Source of the DNA: Candidatus Poseidoniia archaeon
Lineage (GTDB): Archaea > Thermoplasmatota > Poseidoniia > MGIII > CG-Epi1
Direction: 5' to 3'
NCBI GenBank assembly: GCA_030754655.1
Contig: JASLZX010000003.1
Location: forward strand, 15,449 to 79,448
DNA: 64,000 bases
Both the position numbers and the translations under genes were made by a program. Position 1 is the first letter of the stretch. Each line of letters begins with the position of its first letter. The notes beneath the pieces were generated by a model, which made no database searches, had not been told where the DNA came from, and saw only the letters and a list, made by a program, of their open reading frames with translations. Below, in pieces: positions 16,401 through 62,618 of this stretch.

Positions 16401-17884
16401 TTGTTGGCGTCGAAAGCCACGGAATGGGTGCCCCAAGCCATGGTGCCGGTGTAGGCATATTCGGCGCCAGCGGCGTCAGCCGGGCTCTCCGAGGCGTTGG
16501 TGCGTGAGAGCGAGAAGAAATTGCTGCCGACCGTCACGCTGATGGTTGAGGCGTTGGTGCCGTTGTACTCGTGGTAGCGGACCGAGAAGTTGAAGTTGTC
16601 GTTCTCGCCGCCGCTGGCTGGCGAAACTGCCGCGTCGGTCAGCCACGGAATATCGGTGCGGACCCAGACTGAGCCGGCGACCGCGTTGGAATCATCCATG
16701 CTGTCGTTCGAACTGGCAGCGAACACCGTCTTACCAGCTGCGAATACCTGGCTGTGCTCGTACTGCTTACCGTCGGTGTAGTCACCATCGTTTGGGTCGG
16801 AGGCGAACATCGGTACTGCGGTGCCGTCACAGCCATCGCTCAGGTCGTCGTCGCCGACGCAGAGCGTTATCGCACTGGGTGCCTGGTCGTTAGCGTCGGT
16901 ATAGGTGACGGTAACCGTGGCGGGGTCTACTGGTAGTGGTACCGTTGAGGGTGTTGCCGTAATAGAGCTCAGGACCGGTTCGTCATTAACGCGAGGGCCA
17001 TCGTAGGTATCGGAGGTTGCGTCGTCCTCCCCGTCAGAACTGGTGAAGTAGTAGGTGTGCATCCCGAGGCCAATATCTCCCGCTAGGGTGAAGGCGTACT
17101 CGTAATTCTCGCCATTGGTGTAATCACCATCGTTGCTGCTGGAGGAAGTCATTGGGTATCCGGTATCATCGACAAAGAGGAGTACCTCACTGGGAGCGTC
17201 GCCGTCAAGGTCGGTGTAGGTGACCTGGAAACCCACCGTGTCACTCGCGGAGATAGGCCAGTTGGCTTCTCCCGGGGAAACTTGGCCGTCCGTGAGAGTC
17301 GGGGCGCGGTTCTGCTGGACCAGCGGGCGGCTCAGGTCCCATGCTTCCTCGTCTCCGACCTGACACTCCTCCGTGCCATCGAGCCAGATACAGCTCATGC
17401 TGGCTATGTAGAAGGTGACGTCCCCATGGTAGTCTGAGGGTGCCCAAACAAACTCCCACGACAAAGATTCGTCTCCGTCATCTTCGGAGTTGCTCATGAT
17501 GTAGTCGTAACCATCCGAAGCGGTAACGAGGGTTATATCGCCCACCTCAATCGAGAAATTGCCGACTGAGTCGCCATTACCGTTGATAACCACCATCTCA
17601 AAACCGAACTTGTCGTGACCGCTGCCACTCACAGTTACGTCGATGTCTACGTCCTCGCCGGGCACGTACTCTGCAACGCTGAGCGTTACGTCCAGCGAAC
17701 TCTCACCATCGTTGGGATTAGCGTCGGTGTGGCATGACGTGCAGTCATTATCACCTGGCGCGCTGGAATAGCCTGGGTCAATATCTCCGCCCTGATGTCC
17801 CTGCGCATAACCTGCAGCGATGACGGCTATCACCGTCACAATCAGGATACCTGCCAATAGTTGTTCCGGCCGACGTGTCAGCAT
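13409..17884 (-). CDS. giant type-I membrane surface protein with multiple PKD/Ig-like domains, single TM, cytoplasmic coiled-coil and poly-acidic C-terminal tail
   Basis: N-terminal signal anchor (MLTRRPEQLLAGILIVTVIAVIAAG), PKD signatures (WDFGDG...HTY, VDFGDGS...HAY), TM LVGGLVLGLLMAAAAY, then heptad-like E/A/L-rich segment and DDDFGFADDYDDEVGDDEEEYEVEIYEDEDG tail. Confidence 0.8.
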   Translation of the reverse strand: MLTRRPEQLLAGILIVTVIAVIAAGYAQGHQGGDIDPGYSSAPGDNDCTSCHTDANPNDGESSLDVTLSVAEYVPGEDVDIDVTVSGSGHDKFGFEMVVINGNGDSVGNFSIEVGDITLVTASDGYDYIMSNSEDDGDESLSWEFVWAPSDYHGDVTFYIASMSCIWLDGTEECQVGDEEAWDLSRPLVQQNRAPTLTDGQVSPGEANWPISASDTVGFQVTYTDLDGDAPSEVLLFVDDTGYPMTSSSSNDGDYTNGENYEYAFTLAGDIGLGMHTYYFTSSDGEDDATSDTYDGPRVNDEPVLSSITATPSTVPLPVDPATVTVTYTDANDQAPSAITLCVGDDDLSDGCDGTAVPMFASDPNDGDYTDGKQYEHSQVFAAGKTVFAASSNDSMDDSNAVAGSVWVRTDIPWLTDAAVSPASGGENDNFNFSVRYHEYNGTNASTISVTVGSNFFSLSRTNASESPADAAGAEYAYTGTMAWGTHSVAFDANNGANDAAQLSGGSIAVNDAPAFTANGTVERAGDTYTFTASASDINEDDGDSLTVSADLQHYGTLTLNDNSDGTYSATLDLLDLIDRGGTRTVTFSATDSVGAPATGDAGTASFFVDYVGGADLDDPADTSGAPGDRTITFTITNSGNADDTYTIGASNFASWDLSFPATVDVAYDSSATFDLTLSVPFLAYGVPNQIDVDIASQNDGTATDAHSMIYSVGLVQDVAVTAVSSTQEGAPGSSTIHTFTVQNTGNYDNTFVISTSGSWSSSASSSGMSLGMGEVRLVTVTHDVPAGAAHGAGDTVTLTATGGASDSDSADSSAGLVTGSSITLGTVSAAYPGDSFQISGTVTNTGNGDATYSFGISGNSEANGWAVLNTTSTDILEAGASFDFRVWINVPEDTPAGGSYSISTATDDDSASATIDISSDARSAGVSAADDSFQLNPGTSATTVVTVTNTGSVATDYTIVVTAGHDNLRFSTTSFRIDKSGFQTVLLTVMVPAGATAASSAGFTVTPSIDGTGASQTISITPNLPQDISGWSLSTGGTMAGSAHIFALSDAAAGLTIDWDFGDGASIVDGGASQDHTYDMAGDYTISLVATDSLGQVTSFSAPVTAANSAPLVPAPSVSVDEGITIDGNTVSVVEEHTVEFVLAVPTDGDGSIAMLVVDFGDGSQISFSGSDLTDQSTLNLKHAYAAPGTYQVQVTAVDNSGAVTTTVAQEVVVAEAQSVMVADNWNRSFIVLVGGLVLGLLMAAAAYNVRTSGFTGESMNKQERARLAEVEQSLETSKGREELLEVAAYDASRVATKLEAHLSAFNEILVKAQQIAATERLAELEAAEAAETAAAEQLELDMADPDMELLAERFHGTLTRLVDTRTELGQIEEQLAYVLKMERDEQFSKLTEITKAYESTQRKIEAIESVRTAREEAREETSLMDLLSASGAAVSSDDDFGFADDYDDEVGDDEEEYEVEIYEDEDGSFYYIDPDSGEEVPCNEDGNPL

Positions 17885-17965
17885 ATTTACACCTTTTTTG
17901 CGTGAGACTGAAGTCCTCCGTAATGGGCGGACTGACCTCTCTCGTAGCGCCTTCATACCCAAGGA

Positions 17966-34633: not shown

Positions 34634-37600
34634 ATGATGATTTTCATGCGCAAGACCCTCAAATATTCGTTCGCCGTACTAGTGTTTGCATTCCTGCTTT
34701 CACTGGCTGCCTCCGAGGCTTCCGGTGAAGTGGACCTGACGATTACCTCCTTGGACTACACTAATGACTTCGATACCGGAGATCCTGTTACTATCGTCCA
34801 GAGCGGGAAGGATGCTGACACTGTATACAAGTATAATTTTTACGACGATGACAACGATGACTGCGATGAACAGAGGTGTCTCCCCGAGAATTGGTATGCG
34901 AAGAATTTTGACGACGCAATCTGGAGTTCAGGAGCCGCACCCTTCGGCAATAATGACCAGGCCGGCGCCAGTCCGGGCACGATATGGCAAACAGAGGAGG
35001 ATCTGAATGACCACATCGTAATTCGCCATCACTTTACTTACAGTAATGAGTATGATGCAATCAGTGCTACCCTGAACCTGGCCTACAATAACTACTATGT
35101 CGCCTACCTGAACGGGAACCTTATTCGAGACTGCTATTCTTACCAAAACAATAATAATTGTTACCAAGGCGACACTGCATACTGGAACAATGAACTAACC
35201 TATAACGGAGGCTCCCAGTCAGGGCCTAATCAAGATTGGCTAGTCGAAGGTGACAACGTACTTGCCATACTAGGAAGAGACAGCACTTGGGGTGGGGACC
35301 CTAATCAGTGGCTTGATGTCGAGTTCGTGGTCAACGTCCAGTCCTGGAGGGAAAAACCGATTATCCTCGGTGATGACGTGTGGCTGAGGGTGATTACTTC
35401 CAACGTAGGAAACGAAACCGCTGAGAACTTCAACGTCACGCTGGCGGTCGAGGGTGAGGAGCTGGGGAATGCTACCATAACGGAACTGGCACCTAATGCT
35501 ACGGCTGAAAGTGTGTTCTACTGGACTCCGGAGGCGCTCGGAGACTTTAATCTTGTGGCTTTTGCTGATGCTGGGCAAGATGTTGGAGAAAGCGATGAGG
35601 ACAACAATACCCTGAATCGCACAATACACATTGGGTTCTATGCGTACAATATTGCTGTGGAATCAAACCATGTTGTAGGAAATGCTACAGAGATTTTCAG
35701 GTACAATCTAACTGTCACTAACGAAGGCGACGTGGAAGACAATTTCACCCTCTCAGCCTCAGGTATTTTCTACAATTGGGATTGGACCCTTACGCCCAAC
35801 GTACTTCACCTGCAACCCGGAGGGAGCGGGAATGCGACTCTTGAAATAGTTCCGGACAGAGAGACATTGGCTGGGAATTACTCCGTGTTCATGAGTGCCA
35901 GGTCTCAGTACTATAGTGAATTCAGAGAGAACGTAGTCCTGAGTGGCCGGGATAACGAGACAGAATGGTGGTGGGCCCATTCCAATAGCAGTAACACGCG
36001 ACTCTACTATTGCACGGACAATGATGAACCCGACGACCCAGATTATGAATGCGATATTAGCTGGACCGAACTAGACTTCGACTATGATGACAACTGGACC
36101 CTTGACCCGGCACCCTTCGGAGATACCGACATAGGCAATGTAGACAACAACACGGTCTGGCAAGGCAACAGTTACGCCTACTTCCGCCATATATTCACTA
36201 TCGATAATATTTCGGCTTACGAAGGGGGCAGCCTGAGCCTGAATACTGCGGCAAACAACTACGGAACCTACTACCTGAACAGCCAGATAGTGTTCAATGA
36301 CATGCGGCAGGGTCAGGGCCACACCGCGAATTACTGGAACGATGAAACCCTGTTTGGACCCGAACTCTTGCAGGAAGGCGAAAATATCCTGGCATCAGTA
36401 GTCCGGGAAACTGGAAACACCCAGTGGTTTGATGAGGAAGTCGTGGCTGTTTTCTCCCAATCCGCAGCCTGGGATTTCGTTCCGCTACCACTAGAACTGG
36501 AAATGGAGATACTGCCGACCTATAATTTCTCGCTCTCGGCCCCCATTAGCAACAAGCAGATTCCGGACGACACTAACTACACCTTTGAAGTCTGGATTAC
36601 CAATCTAGGAAACATCGGAGATACCTATGAGATGGTAGTCACACTAAACGACACCTACAACTTTACAATCCTTAACTACACCACTACTGAAATGCACAGC
36701 GTTGTTGGAGAAGGTGCAATAGGTTACATTAATGTCACCATGCGCGACCTTATCGAGGAAGACGCGCGTGGCGGTTTCAATGTTACTGTAATTTCGCGCA
36801 ACTCGACCGAACAACTCACTAAATGGATTGAGCTGACTGCAATGCTCTATATCGTGCCTGACACACTGCGTCCTGTTACGGAGGCTATAACAGATCCACT
36901 CGTCAACTCGACCTCGTTCCAGGTAGGGTGGGAAGTAGCCGAATGGTATCGCCTCGACGATGTGCTCGGCAACGACACCTTGGTGGTGACCGTCGAATAC
37001 CGGCGCGACAACGGCAGCGGCAGCTGGGAGGAGTGGCAAGTGTGGCAGGTCTTCACGGCCGAGGACGAGGACAATCCGCTCGGCAGCGGGAGCGGAACCT
37101 TCTCGCTGGGCGAGGACGGTCGCAGCTTCCAGTTCCGGGCAACCGGCCTCGACGATGACGGGCTGTTGGAGGACAAGACGGGACGCAATGACACCGAGAC
37201 GCTGGTCGACACAACCCCGCCAACGGTCGCCGTTTCCAGCGACCCAGCTGGCGCGCTGCTCAGCACCAACTACCTCGAGCTGAGCTGGGAGAGCAGCGCC
37301 AGCGACCTTGCGGGCTACGACCTGCAACATTCGTTTGACGGCGGAGCGTGGGAAACGCTGCTGGCCGACTCGCTCGCGACGCGCTACGACTACTACGTCA
37401 CGGCCGACGGCAGCCACGCCTTCCGCGTCATCGCGAGCGATGACGCGGGCAACCGTGACGTGCCCGACACGCCCCAAATCAGCATGGTCATCGACACCGC
37501 AGCCCCGACGGGGAGGCTCGCGCCGCTGGAGCCGCTGACCGGCGCGCTAGCGGTGACGTTGCTGCCATCGCAGGATAACGCCAGCAGCTACAACCTGAGC

Positions 37601-45371: not shown

Positions 45372-46556
45372 TCAGCCGATAGTACCAGGACTGATGACAG
45401 ATGTGGCGATTCCCATCACTTCGAAGACCAGCCAGCCGATAAAGAGCAACATCGAGGAACGGTTGAACGCCGAGTAGAGCTTGCCAGTGGCCATGAAACC
45501 GGCCGCCATGCCGTTGCCAATGCTCTGGACAATTATGCTGTAGAGGAATATGGTCGAAATCCAGACTTCGTTCAGGTTGCGCACCTGCAGGTTACCGATG
45601 GACATACCCTCTCCGCCGGTGGCAGAGGCGGAATCGGCAATCGCCGGGACGAAAGTGCTGGCCAAGACGAGGATAATAATCAGGTAGACCATAAACGAAA
45701 CGTATACCACCATCATATAGCTGGTAACTTCCTGCGCTCGCTCGGTCTCGAGCGCCTTGATTTCCCTGGCGTCATAAGAGGCGGCGAGCAGGATGTCCGA
45801 AATGCGGCCTCCCGCGCGGTTGGCCTCATCGACCATGCGGACCGCCCGCGACACGATGGGCGACCGGACCCGTTCGGTAAACATCCCCAGCACTTCACTG
45901 AAGGAGATACCCCACGAAATCTGGGTTGACATCTTGTGTACTTCGTCGTTGAGGTTGCCATATTCGCCCCGCGCCAGCGTCTGGATAGCGACGGTCATGC
46001 TGAGACCGCCCTTCCAGTACTCGGCAAGGTCGCGCAGGAAGTCGGGGAATTTCTCCTCAACCCGCGTCCGGAGCTTGTCCTCACGCCAGCCCCAGATGCC
46101 ATAAGGCAGCATCAGCGCAATCAGTGCAAAAATGTAGTAGTCAAGGGTCGAAATTTCAGGATAGTATCGATACCAGGTTGTAGCTTCTACATCCTCGTCA
46201 ATACCGTTAATCAACGGGTCAGCGTCACGACTCTCGTTCTTGGCAATCGAGGGGAGGCCATACATGTAGGGCGTAATCGTGAAGGGGCCATCGTTCATGG
46301 CCTCCGGATTGTCGAACTGCGAATCACCGTCGAAATCGGTGACGACCGTTGTCAGGTCGGCCTGGTGATTCAACTGCCCCAGCGCGATGAACGCGCCGCC
46401 CATCATCAGCGAGAGGAAGACGACGACATAGATCGTAATGTCAGTCTTGCCCTCCTTCACCTCGATCCACTTCAGCGCCATGCGGTAGGTCATCCAGCGC
46501 CGCTTCTTGCCGGTCCGCTCATCGCGGTAGACCCGTTTCTCGAGATTACTTGCCAT
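45372..46556 (-). CDS. TadC/FlaJ-like type II secretion F-domain membrane protein
   Basis: T2SSF-like cytoplasmic domain (LSMTVAIQTLARGEYGNL) between TM helices. Confidence 0.7.
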   Translation of the reverse strand: MASNLEKRVYRDERTGKKRRWMTYRMALKWIEVKEGKTDITIYVVVFLSLMMGGAFIALGQLNHQADLTTVVTDFDGDSQFDNPEAMNDGPFTITPYMYGLPSIAKNESRDADPLINGIDEDVEATTWYRYYPEISTLDYYIFALIALMLPYGIWGWREDKLRTRVEEKFPDFLRDLAEYWKGGLSMTVAIQTLARGEYGNLNDEVHKMSTQISWGISFSEVLGMFTERVRSPIVSRAVRMVDEANRAGGRISDILLAASYDAREIKALETERAQEVTSYMMVVYVSFMVYLIIILVLASTFVPAIADSASATGGEGMSIGNLQVRNLNEVWISTIFLYSIIVQSIGNGMAAGFMATGKLYSAFNRSSMLLFIGWLVFEVMGIATSVISPGTIG

Positions 46557-47497
46557 TAATCAATTGCGACCTCATTGCTCAGTGCGAGGAAAATATAGGC
46601 GAAGAAAATCTGGATTATCGGGAACATCAGGAAGACCATCATGTAGAGGTGCTCTTCCTCCAGTTTCATCCCGGACCCGGAAACCCAGAAGGTGATCACG
46701 GCCATAATCATCGCGAAAATTGGAAGTGCCACCGCCATCACCACATACGCTTCCGCAAAGAGTGCCATCTGCTGGATGACACTCTTGACATGCACCCGGT
46801 TGGCCTGCGCGTAGTATTCTGCCCGGTTCAGGAAGTAGAGCTTCAGGTTACCGCCCGAGGTAAGCGTGCCGACAATTCCCTGCAAGAACTCGGCAAATCG
46901 TTCCGAGGGCGACCGTTCGACGGCCTCCTTGAGCGTCGTCACCAAGTCACGAGCCATGAACTCAACAGAGTGGTAAACCCAAGCCGCATCCTTCGAAATC
47001 TCACCGTAAATATCCTCACTACGAGCGAGCGATTTGAAAATCATCGCCGGCGTTGCATTAGCCGCCGCCATCGCTGCTGTGTAGCTGGCGGCGAAGGGCA
47101 GCTTGCGGTCCATGTCCGTGGCGCGCGAGCCAACTCTCAGCCCGGGCTCGAGCCAGTTCACCATCGCTATCAGCAGCGGCAGTACGATAACCAGCACCAG
47201 TGCTAGGATAGCCTGTATGAATTCCGAGACGATGATCGGCTCACCGTCTGGACCAGTCATTTGCGCTAGGAATGGAACGCCGACGACGATGAAAGCAAAC
47301 ACCAGCGCCAGCCCAGCGATGAAAGTAGCGAAAACCTGCATTGCGGCGTGGGCAACGTAGCCTTCGGGCAGCAGCGGAATGCGCGCCTTCACGAGCTGTT
47401 GCTTGAGCCCGAAGGAATTCTTGGTCAGCAAGCGACCCAGCCAGCCGAAAAGGAGCAGGCTGAGTGACTGCAGGCCGCTTAGAACCACCGGTGCCAC
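46556..47497 (-). CDS. TadB/FlaJ-like type II secretion F-domain membrane protein
   Basis: Second T2SSF-like domain protein adjacent to the first; split platform as in bacterial TadB/TadC. Confidence 0.7.
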   Translation of the reverse strand: MAPVVLSGLQSLSLLLFGWLGRLLTKNSFGLKQQLVKARIPLLPEGYVAHAAMQVFATFIAGLALVFAFIVVGVPFLAQMTGPDGEPIIVSEFIQAILALVLVIVLPLLIAMVNWLEPGLRVGSRATDMDRKLPFAASYTAAMAAANATPAMIFKSLARSEDIYGEISKDAAWVYHSVEFMARDLVTTLKEAVERSPSERFAEFLQGIVGTLTSGGNLKLYFLNRAEYYAQANRVHVKSVIQQMALFAEAYVVMAVALPIFAMIMAVITFWVSGSGMKLEEEHLYMMVFLMFPIIQIFFAYIFLALSNEVAID

Positions 47498-49755
47498 CAG
47501 CGCGGATTGGCCGAGTGCTCAACGCGCTTCGCCAGATTGCTCTGTAGATTGGTCAGCGCATTGGCCTGCCGGGCCTCTTCCTTAGCCGCTTCCTTAGCCT
47601 GCTTGTCTGGACTGGAGGAAAGCTTGACCTGCTTGGCTTCGGCCTTGGCACGCTTCGTTAGCTCGCGGTTGCACGACTTCAACAGTCGTCCCGCCTCACG
47701 TACTGAGAGACTGGATACGTCACCGATACCAAGCTGCGTCGCAGCGGGTGTAAGCTGCCGTAGCGGAGCATAGCGCGCCTGCGCCTTCAGCATATCACGC
47801 TCGAGATAGGCGTCTGACTTGGCGCGGCGAGTCGCTTCCTTCGCCTCGAGCTTGGCGCGCTTGGCCTCGTCGTCAGTATCAGCCGCCCGAGTATCGGCCT
47901 TCGCGCGAGCCGCCGCCTCCTTAGCGAACCGATTCTGGAACTTCTCCTGCACCCCGGCCGGGAACTCGGTGATATCGACACCCTCATCGGCTGCGCCAGC
48001 ACCGCTCAGGTCAAGGTCACGCTCCTTCACCTTGCGGCGGCGCTTGCGACCGCCCACCTGCAGGTCAGCATAGACCCGGCGCATCACGTCCTCGGGGTGG
48101 ACGTAGTACTCGGCCACCACCCGGGCGAAGTCGCGGTAGTCACGGATGCTCTTCTTGAGGCACCACTCGATGACCAGCTGTCGCCGCTTGATTTCGTCCA
48201 TGATTTCGACGCGGTTCAGGTTGGCCTTCAACATGATTTTCTCAAGCACGTAGGACTTGCCGGTGAAGACAAACTCATCGGTGGCGTTGTCCCAGCGGAA
48301 TGCCTCGTTGGTCAGCAGCTCGTGCGAATGGGGGTCAATGCCGATAATTTCGACGATGTTCTTGTTGCGCCGCACGCGCTTCCCACCGACGCGGGTCTGA
48401 ATCTGGATTGAAATCGCGTCAAGCGACGGAATCAGCACGCGCGGAATCTCAATCGGCTTATTCTCAAGCCGGTGCACCAGGCTCTGGATTGAATCGGCGT
48501 GGAAGGTGGAATAGGTAGTGTGCCCAGTCGCCATGGCCTGGAACAGCACGTACGCCTCTGCACCACGGATTTCTCCCACAATGATGTATTCCGGCCGCTC
48601 ACGCAACGCTGCCCGCAGCAGGTCGTACATGTCGACCACTCCTGCCGCCTTGGCGCCCGCCATAGCGGACTCACCACCGAAACCCTCACGGGTACAGCCA
48701 GGAATCCAGTTGGGATGCGGCAGGTTCAGCTCACGCGTCTCCTCAATACTCACAATTTTGTGCTGCCACGGCAGGAAGAGTGAGCAGGCATTGAGGGAAG
48801 TGGTCTTGCCGGAAGCAGTACCACCGACAAACAGCATCGACATGCCGTACTGCATCGCGAGCCAGAAGAAGGCAATCTGCATTGAGGAAAAGGTCTTGAA
48901 CTCGAGTAGGTCCACCGGCGTGAACGGTTCGTCACGGAAACGCCGGATGGTAAAGGTCGAACCTTTCGTGGAGACCTCACGGCCCAGCGTCATGACGATA
49001 CGCGAACCATCCATCAGTGTCGCGTCGAGCAGTGGTTCAGCAATCGAGATGTGCTTACCGCAGCGCTGTGCCATGCGGATGATGTATCGCTCCAGCTCAA
49101 ACTCGTCCGTCCAGAGGACATTGGTCCGCAGCGACTCGAAGCGCCGGTGGTAGACGAACACCTCGACGCCGGGGCCGTCGCAAGAAACGTCCTCGATATT
49201 CGGGTCGTGCATCATGGTATCAATCAGGCCGTAGCCCACCAAGTCACGCTCGATGTAGTAGTGGATTTTCTCGCGGTTGCTCTTGCGACTCGGAAGCCGG
49301 TATGCGTCGAGGATGTCGTCAACCGCCTGATGCAGGAACTCGTCCTGCCCCTCTTCGAGGGTTTCGCGGCTGATATTCAGCGCCCGCTGGAGCACATCCT
49401 GGATGGTCTGCAGGTCCTGTTTCTCCTGTTCGGACGCTTTTGGTTCGACGACATAGTAGAAGCGAGAGTAATCACGCTTGTCGAACAGGATGCGGACGTA
49501 GGAGAAGGGGGGCCTTACGGGGTAGGTATCAAGTTCCTCGAAATCCTCGCCCAACTCGATGTCGTCCATGACGAGGTCATGGATGACGCCCGCCTTCTCG
49601 GCCGCCTTGCGGGACTGATCCTGCTGCTTGCGCTCCTTGCGCAAGCGCCGTTTTTCACGCCATGAAAGCTGGCTCTCGTCGACCGTTTCCTCAGTCGGCG
49701 ATAGCATACCGAGAGGGGCTGATTCTGTGTCAATTGAGTCGCCGGCAGCTCCCAT
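47479..49755 (-). CDS. FlaI/TadA (CpaF)-family secretion ATPase with about 220-aa C-terminal K/A/E/R-rich low-complexity extension
   Basis: Walker A GGTASGKTT, Asp/His boxes, core of about 540 aa; extension KRRRKVKERD...AKEAAKEEARQ... reads as coiled-coil/low complexity. Confidence 0.85.
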   Translation of the reverse strand: MGAAGDSIDTESAPLGMLSPTEETVDESQLSWREKRRLRKERKQQDQSRKAAEKAGVIHDLVMDDIELGEDFEELDTYPVRPPFSYVRILFDKRDYSRFYYVVEPKASEQEKQDLQTIQDVLQRALNISRETLEEGQDEFLHQAVDDILDAYRLPSRKSNREKIHYYIERDLVGYGLIDTMMHDPNIEDVSCDGPGVEVFVYHRRFESLRTNVLWTDEFELERYIIRMAQRCGKHISIAEPLLDATLMDGSRIVMTLGREVSTKGSTFTIRRFRDEPFTPVDLLEFKTFSSMQIAFFWLAMQYGMSMLFVGGTASGKTTSLNACSLFLPWQHKIVSIEETRELNLPHPNWIPGCTREGFGGESAMAGAKAAGVVDMYDLLRAALRERPEYIIVGEIRGAEAYVLFQAMATGHTTYSTFHADSIQSLVHRLENKPIEIPRVLIPSLDAISIQIQTRVGGKRVRRNKNIVEIIGIDPHSHELLTNEAFRWDNATDEFVFTGKSYVLEKIMLKANLNRVEIMDEIKRRQLVIEWCLKKSIRDYRDFARVVAEYYVHPEDVMRRVYADLQVGGRKRRRKVKERDLDLSGAGAADEGVDITEFPAGVQEKFQNRFAKEAAARAKADTRAADTDDEAKRAKLEAKEATRRAKSDAYLERDMLKAQARYAPLRQLTPAATQLGIGDVSSLSVREAGRLLKSCNRELTKRAKAEAKQVKLSSSPDKQAKEAAKEEARQANALTNLQSNLAKRVEHSANPRWWHRWF

Positions 49756-54796: not shown

Positions 54797-56434
54797 TCAC
54801 ACCGCGTAGCCGTAACTCCAGTAGAAAGCGAGCTCGTCGTCAGCGTAGACACGATAGCAGAACCAGTCAATCCAGCGGTAATGGGTGCTGATGATGATGG
54901 ATTCGGGAATGCTGGCGCTGCCGGTCGCCTCCGGGAAGGCGATGTTCACCAGCGAGAGGCTACGGTCAGCCGAGATGTTCTCGTTGAACTCGTTCCGGTT
55001 TTCCCACGTCCAAAGATGGTCGTTCTGCTCCGTAAAGAGCGCACGCCAGCCAAGGTATTCCAGCTCCATCGCGGCCGGGTCGATGACGCCCTGCGCCAGC
55101 CCATCGGCGTCGCGCGTCGCGATTAGCCCGGAGTAGGCATCGACCCGTCGGGTGCGCTTGATGTCGTTCGCCTCGAAAAATTCGCCATCGGCGTGCGCGC
55201 TGCCCCAGAATGCGGCGGCGATGGTCGGCTCGCGCACGTGGTAGCTGTAGCTAGTCTCCGGCCGCTCCATGTGGTCGATGCGTCCGCGCAGGTCGACCGC
55301 GCCCGAGACTCCCGACAGCACGAATAGCGCCGCCACCAGCGCCGCCCGGCCACGACGGGATGGCAGCTCACGCAGCAGCATCTCGGCGCCCGGTCCGACC
55401 AGTAGCAACATCCCGAGCAGCAGCAGGTAGACGAGGTAAATCCGGTCGAGGATAACGTAGGCGCCGAGCGCCAGCCACGTCAGCGCTAGCCATGTCGCCA
55501 GCGTCGGGCGCCCCTGCTGGAGCGTGCCGCCCACGCCGAGCAGTGCCAACAGCAGCAATGGCCCACCGAGTAGTCCATAATGCACCGCGAGGTTGGCGAA
55601 CCGCACCGGCAGCGTTTCGCCCTCGAAAAGGTAGACGCTGAACAGCCCCTCAGACGGGGCGTAGAGCGTGCCGCCGAGGTAGGTGAGGTAAGCGAGGTAG
55701 AGGCCAAGCCCGGTGCAGAAGGCGACCCCCTGACGCGCTGCGCGCTCGCGGTCGAGCGCGCCCGCCTGCCAGCGGCTGAGCGCCGCCGCCAGCGCGAACG
55801 CCAGCAGGAAGCCCGGCAGCAGCAGCCCCATACGGTGGACCGCCGGCAGCGCCAGCCCCAGCGCCAGCCCCAGCGCGATGAGCCGTGCCGGATGGCGGCC
55901 GTAGCGGCGATGCTGGCTGCGCAGCAGCGCCCAGAGGAAGAGCGGCAGCAGCACCACCATCAGGTAGCGCAGCGAAAGCCGCCAGAGCGCGAAAGTGATG
56001 AAGCGCGGCGCGACCGCAAACGAGAGCGCCGCCAGCCAGCGCGCTGCGGGCGAGACACCCAGCTCGCCCGCCAGCAGCCACATCCCGGCGACGCCGAGCA
56101 GCGAAATCGCGAGCGAGAGCAGCAGCGCCGACCCCTCGAAGCCGAGCCCCGTGGTTTCCTCGAAGGCGCCGGTCAGCGCCAGGTGACCGGCCGGCGAGGT
56201 GCCGGGGTAGAGGCCGAAATAGGCGGCCGGGTGGAGCAGCCATTCCATCGCACCCGCATCGCGCAGCGACGCAACCTGGACGAAATACACGAAACTGTCG
56301 CTGCCGGTCGGGCGAGGCGTCAGGGGCCAGCGTAGCAGCAGTGTCACCGCCACGAGGAGTGCGCCCGCAACCCGGGGGAGAGGCCGGCCCATGGCGGTGC
56401 AGCCAGCGCGTGCTAAAAGCGGCTGCTGCGCCAC
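54797..56434 (-). CDS. polytopic membrane protein, GT-C-like glycosyltransferase candidate with C-terminal extracytoplasmic domain
   Basis: About 11 TM helices in the N-terminal 380 aa followed by a soluble about 160-aa domain; architecture like ArnT/PMT/AglB-type enzymes but no definitive motif. Confidence 0.45.
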   Translation of the reverse strand: MAQQPLLARAGCTAMGRPLPRVAGALLVAVTLLLRWPLTPRPTGSDSFVYFVQVASLRDAGAMEWLLHPAAYFGLYPGTSPAGHLALTGAFEETTGLGFEGSALLLSLAISLLGVAGMWLLAGELGVSPAARWLAALSFAVAPRFITFALWRLSLRYLMVVLLPLFLWALLRSQHRRYGRHPARLIALGLALGLALPAVHRMGLLLPGFLLAFALAAALSRWQAGALDRERAARQGVAFCTGLGLYLAYLTYLGGTLYAPSEGLFSVYLFEGETLPVRFANLAVHYGLLGGPLLLLALLGVGGTLQQGRPTLATWLALTWLALGAYVILDRIYLVYLLLLGMLLLVGPGAEMLLRELPSRRGRAALVAALFVLSGVSGAVDLRGRIDHMERPETSYSYHVREPTIAAAFWGSAHADGEFFEANDIKRTRRVDAYSGLIATRDADGLAQGVIDPAAMELEYLGWRALFTEQNDHLWTWENRNEFNENISADRSLSLVNIAFPEATGSASIPESIIISTHYRWIDWFCYRVYADDELAFYWSYGYAV

Positions 56435-56523
56435 GCAACCTTTCAGTCACCAGCGCTGCAACGCTTCTCAATATCATTATATAGGGTAAGCCATCCTCGC
56501 AGGCGACCTGACCGGAGGTTACG

Positions 56524-57219
56524 GTGGCTCTTCGAAAAAGACGTAATTTCGGACTGATTTTCGCATTGCTTTCAGCCGCACTCCTGACGGGCGGAAGCGT
56601 GGTCGGGTATTCCGGAGGCGGCGACACCGGCGGCGATGACTGGGCTGCCGGCGTGATGGTGGAGGGCTGCAGCTGCCACAACCTCGAGCAGAGCGAAACC
56701 GGGATGTGGGCGCTCGAGGGCTTCCCGGCGCGCTACGGGCCCGGAACAGTCTACAACCTAACGCTCACGATTGCCGATTCCAGCGTCACCGACGCTGCCG
56801 ACCCGGCGGCGGCGGGCGGCTTCCTGCTGCGCGTCACCAACGGCAGCTTCGCCAGCGGCGATGGTTTCTGGACCGGCGATAGCGGCCGCCTGCTCTCGCA
56901 CAACGCCGACTCGGACGACCGGCGCAACTGGACTGTGACGTGGACCGCACCCGACGAAGGGACGGGCGACGCGGTGCTGACCGTCTACTTCAACGTCGTC
57001 AACGGCGAGAACGGCAACGACGCCGGCGACGGCTGGACCCGGCTCGTGGCGGTCTCGCTCGGGACCCCACAGGCGCTGGAGGACGAGAAGGGCATCCACG
57101 AGCTGGGAGTCAGCCTGAAACAGTACTGGATTGGCCTGATTGGCATCGCCGTGACGCTGGTCTTCGTGCTGCTGGCGTACATCGTACTACGAGGGGGGAG
57201 TGCCAATTACCGAGGTTAA
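56524..57219 (+). CDS. secreted protein with C-terminal TM anchor (contains CSCH motif)
   Basis: GTG start with GGAGGT RBS; signal peptide; C-terminal hydrophobic helix; upstream of the Rieske/cytb genes. Confidence 0.5.
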   Translation: MALRKRRNFGLIFALLSAALLTGGSVVGYSGGGDTGGDDWAAGVMVEGCSCHNLEQSETGMWALEGFPARYGPGTVYNLTLTIADSSVTDAADPAAAGGFLLRVTNGSFASGDGFWTGDSGRLLSHNADSDDRRNWTVTWTAPDEGTGDAVLTVYFNVVNGENGNDAGDGWTRLVAVSLGTPQALEDEKGIHELGVSLKQYWIGLIGIAVTLVFVLLAYIVLRGGSANYRG

Positions 57220-57571
57220 CGAAATCCTCGAGCAGGTCGCCAGCGGCGAGCTGACGCAGGCGGACGCGCAGAAGCTGCTCGGCACCCGCGGTGACGAGCA
57301 GCTCGGTGCAATCCGGCACGAGACGCCGGCGCCGGAACAGCTCTCGATTTTCGCGATTATCATGCTGCTGATGGTGGTGCAGCTGCTCTACGACGCACTC
57401 TTCATCTTCGGGCTGATTGAGGGATGGGACCAGACTTTCCTATCATTCATCATCGGTATGGCGATGCTGACGTTCGGGCTGATGCTCGACCTCTACCGCC
57501 GCAGCTTCCTGCCCGACGTACTCGAAACCAAGCGCCGTCGCGACAAGGTCGTACCGCGGCTGGAGCGATAG
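57200..57571 (+). CDS. small membrane protein
   Basis: Two to three TM helices; precedes the Rieske gene directly. Confidence 0.4.
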   Translation: MPITEVNEILEQVASGELTQADAQKLLGTRGDEQLGAIRHETPAPEQLSIFAIIMLLMVVQLLYDALFIFGLIEGWDQTFLSFIIGMAMLTFGLMLDLYRRSFLPDVLETKRRRDKVVPRLER

Positions 57572-58252
57572 ATGCCGGTCACACGGCGCAATTTCCTGAA
57601 AGGCGCCCTCGCGCTTGCCGGGAGCGGCATGGGCGGCGCACTCTCGGTGCCGGCGTTGATGACGCTGCTGCCGCCACCCGTTGTCCGTTGCAACTCGGAC
57701 GAGGCGTACGACACTCTGCTCTTCAAGGAACGGGAGCCGGGCACGTGGTACGAACCGCTGGCTGGCAAGGTGGCACGCAAAGAGGACTTTGCGTTGAACC
57801 AGGCGGCGATGGTGACCTGGGCGCCGAAGGAACTGGAGGAGGGGCTGGGAACCTGCGAAATCGTGCTAACGCTAATCAAGCTGCCAGCCGAGGAGGCAAT
57901 GATTGAATGGGGTATCTCCGACGATGGGGGCAACGCGGTAATGATGGCGTACCACACCTACAAGTGCCCGCACCTCTGCTGCAAACCAGTCTTTATGGAA
58001 AAAGAGGAACTCAGCAGCCTCAGCGGCGACACCTACGTGAACATGTTCCTCTGCCCGTGCCACTTGAGCCTCTTCGACCCGCTCTCGATTGTCGAGGCTA
58101 CCGACGAGCTGGGACGCAAGGTAATGGTCGCCGAGCTGGTCGAGGGGCCGGCGCCGTACGGGCTGCCGATTGTGCCAATCATCGAACGCGACGGCGAGCT
58201 TGTAGGGCGAACTGATAAACTGGAGTGGCTGAAATACTGCGGACAGGGATGA
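57572..58252 (+). CDS. Rieske [2Fe-2S] protein with Tat signal peptide
   Basis: RRNFLKG twin-arginine motif; Rieske boxes CPHLCC and CPCHLS. Confidence 0.8.
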   Translation: MPVTRRNFLKGALALAGSGMGGALSVPALMTLLPPPVVRCNSDEAYDTLLFKEREPGTWYEPLAGKVARKEDFALNQAAMVTWAPKELEEGLGTCEIVLTLIKLPAEEAMIEWGISDDGGNAVMMAYHTYKCPHLCCKPVFMEKEELSSLSGDTYVNMFLCPCHLSLFDPLSIVEATDELGRKVMVAELVEGPAPYGLPIVPIIERDGELVGRTDKLEWLKYCGQG

Positions 58253-59193
58253 GAACGACAATAGCGGCTGCAACCGCCCTCGCGCTGCTCGCGCTGGCCG
58301 GGAGCGCCCGCGCCGAGACGCCGCTGCTGGAGGAGTTCATGCGCGACTACACCTTCCTGCTGATTTTCCTCTCGCTGGTCGGCGCAGTGGTCGGCTTCGC
58401 CTTCCTCTGGGCAACCGGGGCGCTGCCGCAGGTGCTGCTGTCGACCTGGGCCTGGCTCGACGAGCGATTTGCGCTGCGGCGCTACGCCAGCCTAGCGCGG
58501 CGCGAATACTACTCGGTGGTCTTCACGCTGCTGCCGGCGAGTGGACGCACCTTCCCGCAGTCGCACACCGAGCGGTACAACGTCAAGGCGGTCTGGTACT
58601 GGTACCCCTTCTACTGCCTCGGCGGGCTTTCGTTCCTGGCGTTCATCATCCTGACCATTACCGGCATCTATCTCGGTTTCTACTACGTCCCTGACGGCGA
58701 TTTCGTCGAGGGCGCTGACGGCGAGATGACCTCCGGAGCGTACGAGTCTATGGAACTCATCATGACCGAGGTGAGCTTTGGCTACATCATGCGTGCGGTG
58801 CACCACTGGGCGGCGCACTTCATGGTCGCAGCGGTGTTCCTGCATATGATGCGGGTCTACTTCGTGGGGGCGTATCGCAACCCGCGCGAGCTGAACTGGA
58901 TTCTGGGGTCCATCCTGCTGATGGTGACTATTTTCTTTGGCTATACCGGCTACCTGTTGCCGTGGGACGAACTGGGCTTTGCTGCCGGGTCAATCGGGCT
59001 CGAAATGGCGACCTCGATTCCGGCCATGGGGCCGCTGATGGCGCAAATCGTCTTCGGCGGGACGCAGCTTACCGGCACGACCGTGCTGCGGATGTACTGG
59101 CTGCACGTCTTCGTGCTGCCCGCAGTGGGAATCGCGCTGATGGTGCTGCACATGGCGCTGGTCTGGATACAGGGGGAGGCGGAGCCGCACTGA
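58249..59193 (+). CDS. cytochrome b, N-terminal di-heme domain (b6-like)
   Basis: Conserved His pairs (VHHWAAHFM...; WLHVFVLP...HMALVW) in TM helices; ATGA overlap with the Rieske gene. Confidence 0.85.
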   Translation: MRTTIAAATALALLALAGSARAETPLLEEFMRDYTFLLIFLSLVGAVVGFAFLWATGALPQVLLSTWAWLDERFALRRYASLARREYYSVVFTLLPASGRTFPQSHTERYNVKAVWYWYPFYCLGGLSFLAFIILTITGIYLGFYYVPDGDFVEGADGEMTSGAYESMELIMTEVSFGYIMRAVHHWAAHFMVAAVFLHMMRVYFVGAYRNPRELNWILGSILLMVTIFFGYTGYLLPWDELGFAAGSIGLEMATSIPAMGPLMAQIVFGGTQLTGTTVLRMYWLHVFVLPAVGIALMVLHMALVWIQGEAEPH

Positions 59194-60254
59194 TGGGCGA
59201 CTACACCGAGAACCTGATTAGCGAATACCAGCAAGGGCGGCAGGCGGAGGACGCTGCCGAGCGCATCGGGCGCAGGACCGAGTTCACGCGAGAAACGCCG
59301 CGGCAGGCGCACTCGGTGCTCGAGGCGTCGCACGTCAAAGGCGAGCCGCTCTACCCGCACGAACTGGTGCGCGACAGCGTGCTGACGCTCTACGTCACCT
59401 CCATCCTCTTCTTCCTGTCGGCGTTCATTCCGCCGCCGTTGCACCGGGCGGCCGACCCCGCCGCCTCGACCGCCTTCCCGCCGCCGCTGCCGGACTGGTA
59501 CCTGCTCTGGGCGTTCGGCTGCCTGAAGGTGGCGTGGGACATCGAGTTCACCATCCTGGGTCACCACTTCTTCCTGATGACTGCCAAGGTCTGGGGAACG
59601 CTGGTGCAGGGGATGATTATCGGCATGGTCGTCGCGGTGCCATTCATCGACCGCGCGCTGGGCTACCTGATTGACCCCGGGCCGAAGGAGGGGATGATGG
59701 ACGTCCTCAACTCCGGCCACGCGCGCCGCCCCATCGAGGACCCCGTGCGCGCCGCGATTGGCGTCTGGGGGCTCGCCTTCGTCGTGATGCTCTCAATATA
59801 TTCCATCAACGCCAACATCGTGCTCTACTACCCCGCCGTCACGACCTCCGTGCTGGCAGGGGTGACGCTGTGGGGGCCGCTGGCGTGCGCCGGGCTGACC
59901 TATCTCTGGCTCGACCGGCGCCGTGCCGAAGGGGCGCGGCCGCTGAGCGATGAGGAGCGGTTCGAGCTCTATCGCGACGGGATTACCAGTCGCCGCATGC
60001 AGCGCATCTACGAGTTCAAGCTCAACCGCTGCTACCAGTGCGGCCTCTGCGACGACATCTGTCCGGTGCGCACCAACGAGGGCGAGGAGGAGCTGAACAT
60101 CATTTTCAATACTTTCCAGAACGAGCACGACGGCGTCGCGAAATGGTCGTGCATCACCTGCGGGATGTGCACCGCCATCTGCCCGCAGAACATCGAATAC
60201 GTGGATTACGTCCTCGAGCAGCGCGCAATTGCGCTGCAAGGAGCCGCAACATGA
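59193..60254 (+). CDS. cytochrome b C-terminal domain (subunit-IV-like, PDWY motif) fused to a 2x[4Fe-4S] ferredoxin domain
   Basis: PPLPDWYLLWAFG (PEWY-like) in TM region; C-terminal CYQCGLCDDICP and CITCGMCTAICP cluster motifs. Confidence 0.75.
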   Translation: MGDYTENLISEYQQGRQAEDAAERIGRRTEFTRETPRQAHSVLEASHVKGEPLYPHELVRDSVLTLYVTSILFFLSAFIPPPLHRAADPAASTAFPPPLPDWYLLWAFGCLKVAWDIEFTILGHHFFLMTAKVWGTLVQGMIIGMVVAVPFIDRALGYLIDPGPKEGMMDVLNSGHARRPIEDPVRAAIGVWGLAFVVMLSIYSINANIVLYYPAVTTSVLAGVTLWGPLACAGLTYLWLDRRRAEGARPLSDEERFELYRDGITSRRMQRIYEFKLNRCYQCGLCDDICPVRTNEGEEELNIIFNTFQNEHDGVAKWSCITCGMCTAICPQNIEYVDYVLEQRAIALQGAAT

Positions 60255-61135
60255 GTCGCACCGAACCCTACGCCCGCACCATCCCGCACCCGCTCTTCGA
60301 GCGCATGATAATCAACGACGTCGACACGCCCGACGAAGCGCCGTGGCAGCCCGAGCGGCAGCACGAATACGGCTACTTCCCCGGCTGCGTCGACTTCATG
60401 GACGTCGAAGTCAAGTTCTCGCACCTGAACAAAGGCGATGCCGACCACGCCTCGATTGCGGCGGCGGCTATCAAACTGATGAACGCCGCCGGCATCGACC
60501 CTCTGATTCTCGACATGAACTCGTTCAAGTGCTGCGGGCACGACCAGCTCTGGCAAGGACAGCTCGAGGTCTTTGACGAGCTGAAGGCGCACAACCTGCG
60601 CCGCATGCAGGAGAGCGGTATCCGCACCCTCGTCGTCACCTGCGCCGAAGGCTACCGCACCTTCGCGGTCGACTACGACCTGCCCGGTCAAGGCATCCAG
60701 GTCGAGCACATCACGCAGACGCTGCGCGGGCGCGGTCTCAAGTTCAAGTCACCCGAACCGGTGCGCGTCACCTTCCACGACCCGTGCCGGCTCGGCCGCA
60801 TGATGGGTGAATACGACGCGCCGCGCGACCTTATCCAATTGGTGGACGGCGCCGAGATGGTTGAACTGGAGAACAGCCGCGAGAAGGCGCTCTGCTGCGG
60901 CGTCTCGTCGATGATGTATTGCAACGACGCGACCAAGGCGGTGCGCAAGAAGCGGCTGGACCAAGGCACCGACGCCGAAATCCAGGTGATGCTTGGCGGC
61001 TGTCCCAAGTGCTACATGCATATGCAATGTCTGCTCAACGAGGAGCGCATGGACCCCGGCGAACACAACCACTCGTTCGAGATGCTGGACCTGATGCAGT
61101 TCCTCTCCGCCTGCCTTGTTGAGGAAGCCGCCTGA
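60251..61135 (+). CDS. CCG-domain (cysteine-rich, HdrB/HdrD/GlpC-C-terminal-like) iron-sulfur protein
   Basis: Two Cys-rich CCG-type repeats (FKCCGHD...; ALCCGVS...CPKC); ATGA overlap with the upstream gene. Confidence 0.7.
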   Translation: MSRTEPYARTIPHPLFERMIINDVDTPDEAPWQPERQHEYGYFPGCVDFMDVEVKFSHLNKGDADHASIAAAAIKLMNAAGIDPLILDMNSFKCCGHDQLWQGQLEVFDELKAHNLRRMQESGIRTLVVTCAEGYRTFAVDYDLPGQGIQVEHITQTLRGRGLKFKSPEPVRVTFHDPCRLGRMMGEYDAPRDLIQLVDGAEMVELENSREKALCCGVSSMMYCNDATKAVRKKRLDQGTDAEIQVMLGGCPKCYMHMQCLLNEERMDPGEHNHSFEMLDLMQFLSACLVEEAA

Positions 61136-61983
61136 TGGCTGCTGGCATCGACCGACAATACCTCTCCGCCTGGAAGCAGGCCGCAACGCACGCGGGTGAC
61201 AGCGAGCCGGTGCAAATCTGGACACAGGACGGCACCTACGGCGGACTCGACTCGGGCAAGCTCGGCATCTGGGGCACCGTCGTCGGCGTCGATTTCGACA
61301 TGTGCATCGCCGACGGGGCGTGCATCGACGCCTGCCCGGTCGACGTCTACGAGTGGATTGATTCTCCCGGCCACGCCGCGTCGGAGCGCAAGCCGTTCAT
61401 GCCACGCGAGCCGGACTGCATTGTCTGCCGCGCCTGCGAGGAGGTCTGCCCGGTCGACGCGGTGCTGATTACCGACCCGGGCGACGTCGAGGCGGCGATG
61501 GCGGGCGCGGACGCCGCGGCCGCCCCGGCAATCACGGAAGCGGTCGCCACCGAAGGCGAAGCCTCGGCCGAAGCCGCCGCTACCGTTGCGGCTGAACCGG
61601 CAATCGCAGCACCGGTGTGGGAGCCGAAGCCCGATGTGTGGCTCCAGCGCATGAAGGAATCGCTGGCGGACGCCAATCTGCCCGATACCGGCATGGCGAA
61701 GGCGAAGCCGCTCTTCAAGGAAATCCGCAAGGAGACGCTCGACTCGCTCTCGCGCGGCAAGGAATTCATCGCGCTGGTGCACAACGACAAGTGCATCGGC
61801 TGCACGCAGTGCGTCTATTTCTGCAACTTCGCGTCAATTGACATGATTGGGTGGGAACTCGAAACACGCACCGACGCGTTCGAATCGAAGAAAGCGCTGA
61901 TTGTCGAAGATACCTGCACCGGCTGCACGCTCTGCGTCTTCGCCTGCCCCGTCGAAGCAATCACCATGGAAGCGCGGGCGTGA
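61135..61983 (+). CDS. polyferredoxin with four [4Fe-4S]-type Cys motifs
   Basis: CIADGACIDACP, CIVCRACEEVCP, CIGCTQCVYFCN, CTGCTLCVFACP; Ala/Glu-rich linker between the two ferredoxin pairs. Confidence 0.75.
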   Translation: MAAGIDRQYLSAWKQAATHAGDSEPVQIWTQDGTYGGLDSGKLGIWGTVVGVDFDMCIADGACIDACPVDVYEWIDSPGHAASERKPFMPREPDCIVCRACEEVCPVDAVLITDPGDVEAAMAGADAAAAPAITEAVATEGEASAEAAATVAAEPAIAAPVWEPKPDVWLQRMKESLADANLPDTGMAKAKPLFKEIRKETLDSLSRGKEFIALVHNDKCIGCTQCVYFCNFASIDMIGWELETRTDAFESKKALIVEDTCTGCTLCVFACPVEAITMEARA

Positions 61984-62033
61984 GCCCGACTGCGTCAGAT
62001 AACCTGTTGCGCGCCAGCTTCGGTATTTGTGGG

Positions 62034-62618
62034 ATGTTAGCGCTGCTCGACGCACTGCTGACACAGAGCGTGCCAGTTGAGTACTTGGCCTATCTAACGG
62101 CACTTGCTGTGTTTGGGATAACGACGGTGTGGCGAGACTCACTGCCGTCCGACAACCTGAGGCTGCGCTACGGCATCGTGGCCGTGGTCTGGCTGCTGGT
62201 GCTGGGGCTCGCCGGGCTCGCCACCCGCGCCGGCGACCCCGGCTTCGGGCAGGCGTCATTCATCCTGCTCGGCACGCTGCTGACCTGGGTCGTGCTGCGC
62301 GCCTGGCCGCCGCCGGCGGTCGAGCCGCCGCCAGCCGAGATTGTCATCGAGACGCCGATTGACGCTCCCGAGTGGGGCATCAGCGAGAACGGCTATCGGC
62401 GGCTGACCTGGGCGACGATGATACTCGCCACCGGCTGCGTCGCGGTCTTCCTGGAGGGGCTGATACAAGAGCGCTTCGCCGCCGCGCTGGGGATGCTGCT
62501 GCTCGGCAGCGTCATCGCGGTGCTGCCGCTCATCATCCCGGTGCGCGAGACCGAGGCGACCATCCGGCGCCTTGCGGAGCGCAAACGGCGCAAGGCATGG
62601 CGCCGGCGCGAGCAATAA
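62034..62618 (+). CDS. membrane protein, hypothetical
   Basis: About 5 TM helices; start trimmed to avoid overlap with the polyferredoxin. Confidence 0.4.
   Translation: MLALLDALLTQSVPVEYLAYLTALAVFGITTVWRDSLPSDNLRLRYGIVAVVWLLVLGLAGLATRAGDPGFGQASFILLGTLLTWVVLRAWPPPAVEPPPAEIVIETPIDAPEWGISENGYRRLTWATMILATGCVAVFLEGLIQERFAAALGMLLLGSVIAVLPLIIPVRETEATIRRLAERKRRKAWRRREQ

Follow-up and report, generated by a model that had tools for sequence, protein, structure and literature searches.

What might a Rieske/cytochrome b complex do when one of its cytochrome subunits is fused in frame to, and encoded beside, the iron-sulphur (Fe-S) parts of an HdrD-like protein? The question is raised by a locus in the genome of a Candidatus Poseidoniia archaeon (assembly GCA_030754655.1, contig JASLZX010000003.1, positions 15,449–79,448), a 64,000-nt stretch here called the window, to which all coordinates refer unless another locus is named. 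Reading of the sequence and its open reading frames (ORFs) places seven translationally coupled genes, which we number g1 to g7, at 56524–61983 on the forward strand. Judged from sequence, the operon is best explained as encoding the Rieske/cytochrome b complex (complex III) of the Poseidoniia, of b6 type and predicted to oxidise menaquinol, with as many as eight predicted Fe-S clusters lined up on the cytoplasmic side and a tethered electron carrier at their end. The region's genes are 94–99% identical to those of a Candidatus Thalassarchaeaceae metagenome-assembled genome (MAG; locus L005), and their homologues bear the names of marine groups II and III (MGII and MGIII).

A preliminary description of this DNA, made without database searches, had proposed a Rieske/cytochrome b module wired to HdrD-like and polyferredoxin subunits, with tightly coupled genes and start/stop overlaps such as ATGA. 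The genes that it listed are present on the forward strand where it placed them, and every junction from g2 to g7 overlaps or abuts: g2 and g3 are directly adjacent (TAG, then ATG), the g3/g4 and g5/g6 junctions are ATGA overlaps, and the g4/g5 and g6/g7 junctions are one-base overlaps (TGATG). Its operon, which started at 57200, requires extension by one gene at the 5' end, as the operon begins with g1 at 56524 and g1 overlaps g2 by 20 nt.

The membrane core of the complex is encoded by g3, g4 and the first part of g5. The product of g3 (57572–58252) carries a perfect Tat motif, TRRNFLK, and the boxes CPHLCC and CPCHLS of a Rieske [2Fe-2S] protein, including the disulfide Cys; both boxes are conserved across the 42 loci that yielded the gene. 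The Pfam Rieske family gave no match to the window protein, nor did a phmmer search of g3 against the PDB. A profile built from g3 orthologues recovered what these single-sequence searches had missed, matching the Thermus Rieske protein (3fou, 1.6e-8) and QcrA/actinobacterial subunits in alignments that include the Pro loop and both boxes, and the assignment of g3 as a Tat-Rieske protein therefore stands; the Pfam family does match the orthologues in two distant loci (L046 and L047). The second box reads CPCHLSxF, without the Tyr typical of high-potential Rieske proteins.

The next gene, g4 (58249–59193), encodes a four-helix cytochrome b of b6 type and confirms the predicted cytochrome b N-domain (Cytochrome_B, PF00033, 4.4e-37). 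Its best PDB match is a cyanobacterial cytochrome b6 (6.5e-40), with about 45% identity over the core, and in the alignment to b6 it has His at all four heme-ligand positions of helices B and D, which we take to be H86, H100, H187 and H202 in b6 numbering. A scan for transmembrane (TM) helices predicts an additional N-terminal signal-like segment and helix. The motif FYCLGG (58609–58626) aligns with the FYCLGG of b6 that carries the heme-cn Cys, presumably Cys35 in b6 numbering, and heme cn is accordingly a prediction for g4 from the presence of that Cys position. The Cys is found in the window clade (L005–L008 and L036), in L037 and L038, which are bathypelagic MGIII loci (one is CG-Bathy1), and in a distant Thermoplasmata clade, and is replaced by Ser in 34 other MGII/MGIII loci; it is possible that this division separates deep-water from surface-water lineages.

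The first part of g5 (59193–60005; the whole gene spans 59193–60254) encodes the cytochrome b C-domain, or subunit IV. Residues 46–210 match QcrB_actin (5.4e-10), and the protein also matches residues 250–400 of QcrB in the PDB; Cytochrom_B_C (PF00032) scores below threshold in the window protein (0.0085) and reaches 8.6e-10 in the orthologue from L047. The Qo motif PDWY is present in 45 of the 47 loci with the gene recovered, the stretch being unrecovered in the other two. This motif goes with menaquinone and with low- to mid-potential Rieske proteins (PMC4122944). Hydropathy predicts four TM helices (E–H) followed by RRR after helix H, from which we conclude that the C-terminus of subunit IV is cytoplasmic, in agreement with the topology expected in the preliminary description. 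An AlphaFold2 (AF2) model of g5 from a 22-sequence alignment reached a predicted local distance difference test score (pLDDT) of only 44, too low for a fold search, with a helix count that agrees with four.

Behind these helices g5 continues in frame into a 2x[4Fe-4S] domain (60006–60254, CYQCGLCDDICP ... CITCGMCTAICP; Fer4_8 1.7e-9, HdrC 8.5e-9), the fusion that the preliminary description had reported and had itself named as a possible assembly or frameshift artefact. That an ordinary complex III is merely co-transcribed here with unrelated Fe-S proteins, or that the fusion is artefactual, would require nothing beyond gene adjacency, and the sub-threshold score of the C-domain in the window speaks for it. 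Against this, the in-frame fusion recurs with the same length and architecture in more than 130 homologous protein clusters and in about 40 loci from independent MAGs and single-cell genomes, start/stop overlaps run throughout the operon, and in distant relatives the CCG protein is joined to the same polypeptide. The conserved fusion and this further fusion rule out an artefact at g5, and we regard co-transcription of unrelated proteins as highly improbable.

Our genome scan returned 46 loci. By tblastn the order g1 to g7 is preserved, at 44–99% identity, in about 40 independent loci of genomes and metagenomes, among them MAGs and single-cell genomes of MGII and MGIII. The arrangement is therefore no product of chance, and the neighbourhood survey proposed in the preliminary description does find Rieske/cytochrome b and CCG genes together across MGII and MGIII. 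The loci also share their flanks, with S15 and a large membrane protein upstream, and a small membrane protein and a CCA-adding enzyme downstream. Matches to g5 below 1e-30 are few, at 13 proteins in a library of 1.84 billion representatives. Of ten distant representatives that we scanned, five (P0121, P0123, P0126, P0127 and P0129) carry subunit IV, ferredoxin and CCG domains on a single chain, as does one ORF in each of L046 and L047. These fusions show the Fe-S module to be part of the cytochrome b, physically attached to one of Rieske type in place of HdrE, as had been proposed.

The distant loci belong to a variant cluster found in four Thermoplasmata MAG loci (L044–L047) at 32–36% identity, which is headed by DUF7318 and continues with a Rieske protein, a cytochrome b with a Big_5 ecto-domain, the subunit IV-ferredoxin-CCG fusion and an Fe-S protein with an MvhD (FlpD) domain. 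In L046 (3234–9227) and L047 (1169–7462) the cytochrome b has a large N-terminal ecto-domain with four Big_5 repeats, and the last gene, for the Fe-S protein with the MvhD/FlpD domain, replaces the ferredoxin-headed subunit.

The soluble protein encoded by g6 (60251–61135) has two CCG domains (PF02754, 4.2e-20, in two stretches), as had been noted before. We compared it and the g5 ferredoxin domain with P0410, a 350-aa protein annotated as HdrD that represents the HdrD-like proteins of the Methanosarcinales. Residues 272–344 of g5 align with residues 3–75 of P0410 (39% identity, 6e-14), and residues 41–286 of g6 with its residues 117–344 (48% identity, 1e-77), with the motifs CYQCGxC, CCGHDQLWQG, CAE(C/G)YRT, CCGVSS and CPKC in common. 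By this comparison the g5 ferredoxin domain and g6 are the N- and C-terminal halves of a split HdrD, and the proposal that ferredoxin and CCG parts together reconstitute an HdrD-like module holds; the ferredoxin part matches the HdrC profile (above), and g6 the C-terminal half of TfrB (4e-26). The best NCBIfam matches are TfrB, TmcB and DsrK, and the closest solved structure to g6 is mycobacterial EtfD (9ojn, 2.4e-16).

The two CCG domains of g6 differ in their Cys content. Domain 2 has the full C...CC...CxxC set of five Cys. Domain 1 has four in all Poseidoniia, arranged as CC...CxxG in the window clade, as CS...CxxC in 35 loci and as CT...CxxC in one locus, and the full CC...CxxC is found in the distant clade and in relatives from Hdr clusters. 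The variation is compensating, in that each Poseidoniia variant has exactly four Cys, like the linear [3Fe-4S] site of EtfD. In EtfD a ferredoxin plus CCG module acts as a non-catalytic wire from electron transfer flavoprotein (ETF) to heme b and menaquinone; the linear [3Fe-4S] cluster of its CCG domain 1 has four Cys ligands, the second Cys of 'CC' being Thr, and its noncubane cluster is capped by His (PMC13083937).

Similarity to HdrD raises the possibility that the CCG protein is a catalytic site of HdrD type that reduces or forms a cytoplasmic disulfide and exchanges electrons with the quinone pool via the cytochrome b. The substrate would be a low-molecular-weight thiol pair or a protein disulfide, and the ferredoxin subunit g7 would serve as a second input. 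The g5 ferredoxin domain and g6 are colinear with, and 39–48% identical to, proteins annotated as HdrD that are encoded beside hdrC, hdrB, hdrA and mvhD; the five-Cys motif of CCG domain 2 is complete and the capping His of EtfD is absent; a distant clade combines the full set of five plus five Cys with an MvhD-like partner; and the three best NCBIfam matches are all consistent with such an activity. Set against this are the missing Cys of CCG domain 1, which is one short in all Poseidoniia as in the non-catalytic EtfD (PMC13083937), and the operon and the scanned window ORFs, which contain no gene for DsrC/TusA, for a lipoate-binding protein or for coenzyme M or coenzyme B (CoM/CoB) synthesis. 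MGII are aerobes and are not known to make CoM/CoB, which also counts against a disulfide substrate of this kind, and we consider a thiol/disulfide enzyme unlikely.

The arm ends in g7 (61135–61983; matches to Fer4 families), which the preliminary description had called a four-cluster polyferredoxin. There are indeed four Fe-S motifs, but they do not indicate four [4Fe-4S] clusters, since the first, CxxDxxC, is of [3Fe-4S] type. The head (approximately 61252–61473) has the motifs CIADGAC...CP and CIVCRAC...CP, the 7Fe pattern of archaeal zinc-ferredoxin-type proteins (ZFX_Thplmales, 5.6e-18). A 7Fe ferredoxin of this type serves aerobic archaea as their major soluble ferredoxin (PMC2946596). 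An Ala/Glu-rich linker of about 95 aa follows, the stretch between the Fe-S domains measuring 102–114 residues in 18 loci, and then a C-terminal 2x[4Fe-4S] domain (approximately 61756–61980), which shares 33% identity with the Fer4 region of the MvhD protein in L047.

In 13 loci (L021–L028, L030–L032, L035 and L043, mostly MGIII CG-Epi-type and other MAGs) the head of g7 is a Flavodoxin_1 domain (8e-27, 8e-29) instead of a ferredoxin, with the linker and docking domain kept. As ferredoxin and flavodoxin exchange at one position, we take the head to be a tethered one-electron carrier. Replacement of ferredoxin by flavodoxin is a classical iron-sparing swap, found here within a subunit of a respiratory complex. 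Together with other iron-saving substitutions in surface lineages, it suggests that the complex is tuned to iron supply.

Assignment of g7 as RnfB was considered and rejected, the match to TIGR01944 (rnfB, 4e-15) scoring 55.9 bits against a cutoff of 68.7. RnfACDEG are missing from MGII (PMC6336850), and g7 is probably the orphan 'RnfB' of MGII described in the same study.

The first gene, g1 (56524–57219), encodes a 231-aa protein of the choice-of-anchor-V domain family, predicted to lie on the other face of the membrane; the TM scan places a signal/anchor at its N-terminus and a TM helix at its C-terminus, and a beta-sandwich lies between them. Its AF2 model (pLDDT 71.8) resembles reeler-domain sandwiches in Foldseek (1e-6, 22–25% identity). 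A GCxCH motif (G48-C49-x-C51-H52) is invariant, as are S125-H126, R134, W136, W140, D149, N157 and D169, among other columns, and some 20 residues separate the Cys motif from the predicted mature N-terminus (G|Y-P/S), recalling cytochrome f. A reeler fold has also been used to model an archaeal protein predicted to be a monoheme cytochrome c, with CxxCH near its N-terminus (PMC4429474); we found no precedent for a CxCH heme motif in our literature search. The protein is a likely candidate for the outer-face electron acceptor of the Rieske protein, in the position of cytochrome c1 or f, and could represent a class of extracytoplasmic redox carrier not described before. True homology to cytochrome f is not supported, the likeness being limited to general beta-sandwich similarity and analogous topology. 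Homology to the ecto-domain that begins the 877-aa cytochrome b fusion protein of L047 was rejected, with an hhalign probability of 0.1, and we do not draw on that fusion as evidence for g1.

The 123-aa product of g2 (57200–57571), previously noted as a small membrane protein, belongs to DUF7318 (PF24002, 1.3e-13) and has two TM helices and a basic C-terminus in the TM scan; it is a predicted small membrane subunit of the complex. Fusions of g1 to DUF7318 occur in another Thermoplasmata group (P0346–P0349).

In a complete Thermoplasmata genome (CP070808.1; L051, 9319–13403) two choice-of-anchor-V proteins with the motifs GCTCHN and GCHCHN, one of them fused to DUF7318, lie immediately upstream of and adjoin an 804-aa molybdopterin oxidoreductase (Fdh/Nas/Nap-like), at a locus with no Rieske/cytochrome b genes. 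For this reason g1 and g2 together may be a general membrane redox partner.

Given these parts, we tentatively favour, at somewhat less than an even chance, a reading in which low-potential electrons from the cytoplasm enter through the Fe-S arm to heme bn and the Qi site and then pass into the Q-cycle. The fourth helix of subunit IV would place its C-terminus, with the Fe-S wire, in the cytoplasm, where the arm would hold two cubane clusters on the g5 ferredoxin domain and two CCG-type clusters on g6. The last subunit, g7, would dock by its 2x[4Fe-4S] domain, and its head, a ferredoxin or in some lineages a flavodoxin, would be held by a flexible linker. The donors would be low-potential carriers such as those of ferredoxin type that 2-oxoacid oxidoreductases reduce, with ETF as a possible further one, and electrons would run from the head through the clusters of g7, g6 and g5 to heme bn (heme cn where the Cys is present) and on to quinone at Qi. 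They would leave the Q-cycle by way of the Rieske cluster, the reeler-fold GCxCH protein g1 and a terminal oxidase. We infer the physical assembly of these products, the direction of flow, the identity of the donor and the cofactor of g1.

Electron entry is favoured because of the precedent of EtfD, the four-Cys CCG domain 1 and the suggestion made for the Angelarchaeales that complex III may be an entry point for reduced ferredoxin (PMC9038741). A working Qi site would also be needed, because this is the only complex III reported in the aerobic MGII, which have been described as aerobic heterotrophs with cytochrome b and Rieske proteins, no canonical bc1 and an orphan RnfB (PMC6336850).

Several points weigh against electron entry. 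The AF2 model of g5 is too poor to position the ferredoxin domain relative to the membrane part. Passing ferredoxin electrons into quinone without pumping would waste about 300 mV; the same objection has been raised for the anammox complexes (PMC12954380). Among the 20 large window ORFs scanned there are no etfAB, oxoacid-oxidoreductase or other respiratory genes. The closest free-standing relatives of the arm (45–49% identity) lie in hdrCBA-mvhD clusters of the Methanosarcinales, which are catalytic disulfide reductase systems, in the distant clade CCG domain 1 still has its five Cys and the module's partner is an MvhD-like protein, and g6 has Glu (CAEG/CAEC) where EtfD has its capping His.

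The electrons could also flow the other way along the arm, in a quinone-based bifurcation. One electron of menaquinol oxidised at Qo would then pass via hemes bp and bn to the Fe-S arm and reduce the tethered ferredoxin or flavodoxin, or another low-potential acceptor, rather than quinone at Qi, while the other would go to the Rieske protein, g1 and the oxidase. The layout matches that of the anammox Rieske/cytochrome b complexes, in which Fe-S clusters on the n-side lead from a b6-like cytochrome b and subunit IV to a reductase, and which are proposed to make NAD(P)H in this manner (PMC12954380). For menaquinone and a low- to mid-potential Rieske protein of PDWY type (PMC4122944) we estimate the potential of bn at −150 to −200 mV, using the symmetry rule cited in PMC12954380, and a [3Fe-4S] centre or the oxidised/semiquinone couple of flavodoxin would fit this value; universal conservation of the Fe-S arm also speaks for this reading. 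However, in aerobes for which this is the sole complex III reported (PMC6336850), diversion of every second electron would abolish the gain of the Q-cycle unless it were regulated, and oxoacids already supply aerobic heterotrophs with reduced ferredoxin. The Tyr typical of high-potential proteins is also missing from the Rieske box, in contrast to the anammox Rieske proteins, whose potentials of more than +300 mV render bifurcation to very low potentials feasible, and on balance we find bifurcation rather unlikely.

The most far-reaching form of this idea would be an aerobic quinone-bifurcating machine that makes low-potential reductant or reduced thiols and passes the other electron through the Rieske protein and, where cytochrome c1/f would stand, a novel class of reeler-fold redox protein with a CxCH site, on to oxygen. 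To this we give about as little weight as to the thiol/disulfide enzyme above.

Comparison with characterized systems helps to place the operon. It has in common with cytochrome b6f and Firmicute-type complexes the Tat-Rieske protein, the cytochrome b of four helices and the P(D/E)WY motif on a separately encoded subunit IV, and the window also has the CxGG heme-cn Cys, although this is Ser in 34 related loci. A C-terminally anchored beta-sandwich protein, g1, is encoded where cytochrome f would act, but the operon has no CxxCH cytochrome f, and g1 has CxCH and a reeler fold. Where b6f has a three-helix subunit IV ending on the p-side, the operon encodes one with four predicted helices and a 2x[4Fe-4S] domain in the cytoplasm, the cytochrome b has its additional N-terminal helix, and the CCG and ferredoxin subunits have no counterpart in b6f.

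The arm itself follows the order of HdrD (of HdrDE) and of the HdrD-like proteins of about 350 aa in Methanosarcinales and anaerobic methanotrophic archaea (ANME), a 2x[4Fe-4S] domain and then two CCG domains, and is colinear with them. In Poseidoniia, however, the module is split over two genes, its ferredoxin half is fused to a bc-type cytochrome b and not partnered with the NarI-like HdrE, CCG domain 1 is short of one Cys, and the host is an aerobic heterotroph. EtfD (9ojn) and EMO-type proteins likewise combine a membrane heme b protein with a cytoplasmic wire of 2x[4Fe-4S] and two CCG domains to menaquinone, as predicted here. Both have a four-Cys CCG domain 1, with 'CT' in EtfD and 'CS' in most Poseidoniia, whereas the CC..CxxG pattern of the window clade differs. 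The membrane part of EtfD is a five-helix, single-heme protein without a Rieske protein or Qo site, its His583 cap (CPHC) is Glu here, and there are no etf genes among the scanned window ORFs.

Other non-canonical Rieske/cytochrome b systems with n-side modules have been proposed to carry out bifurcation or to accept electrons from ferredoxin (PMC12954380). The anammox complexes Kuste4569-74 and Kustd1480-85 share with the Poseidoniia operon a b6-like cytochrome b and a cytoplasmic-side Fe-S chain, but their modules are FAD/NAD(P) reductases with multiheme cytochromes c. A bacterial 'PDWF-FeS' clade has fusions of cytochrome b to 4Fe-4S and MvhD domains, in clusters without a Rieske protein (PMC4122944), and in Angelarchaeales hdrD-like and rnfB-like genes lie beside complex III (PMC9038741). 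The haloarchaeal halocyanin-Rieske/cytochrome b cluster has halocyanin and no heme-ci Cys, and no Fe-S domain has been reported on its second subunit. Pieces of the system have thus been noted earlier only in passing (PMC9038741, PMC6336850, PMC4122944), and in the literature that we searched neither the seven-gene architecture of the Poseidoniia nor its split HdrD, reeler-fold subunit or ferredoxin/flavodoxin head is described, and no biochemistry of the complex is reported.

The Poseidoniia (MGII and MGIII) are among the most abundant archaea of the ocean, and their respiratory chain cannot be modelled correctly without this complex, since it is the only complex III reported for them. If electrons do enter through the arm, the complex would link cytoplasmic electron carriers directly to the quinone cycle. 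It offers a test case for the entry of ferredoxin electrons into b6f-type complexes on the heme bn/cn side, which is debated for cyclic electron flow, and equally for the use of Qo bifurcation to produce low-potential reductant, as proposed for anammox.

The surroundings of the operon provide some further detail. A candidate archaeal TATA box, TTATATA (56477–56483, forward strand), lies about 40 nt upstream of the g1 start, and GGAGGT (56514–56519, forward strand) is just 5' of the GTG start codon; both were read from the sequence within the 89-bp gap 5' of g1 and are candidate signals for its expression. On the far side of the gap, divergent from the operon, 54797–56434 on the reverse strand encodes a 545-aa polytopic membrane protein with no Pfam match, which is syntenic in nearly all related loci at 34–96% identity. 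At the 3' end, 61980–62618 on the forward strand encodes a multi-TM protein with no family match, which would overlap g7 by GTGA if it starts at the GTG at 61980. Its position is conserved, with 63–97% identity within the window clade and only 26–35% outside it, and in other loci the counterpart overlaps the CCA-adding enzyme gene and not the operon.

The G+C content of the window is high, at about 65%. Three stretches are lower (0.55–0.61 versus about 0.66), at 13409–17962 (reverse strand), 34634–38617 (forward strand) and 45372–49755 (reverse strand), and fall on genes for very large PKD/CARDB-domain surface proteins and on a cluster of type IV pilus/archaellum-like ATPase and membrane-protein genes; they may represent variable cell-surface islands.

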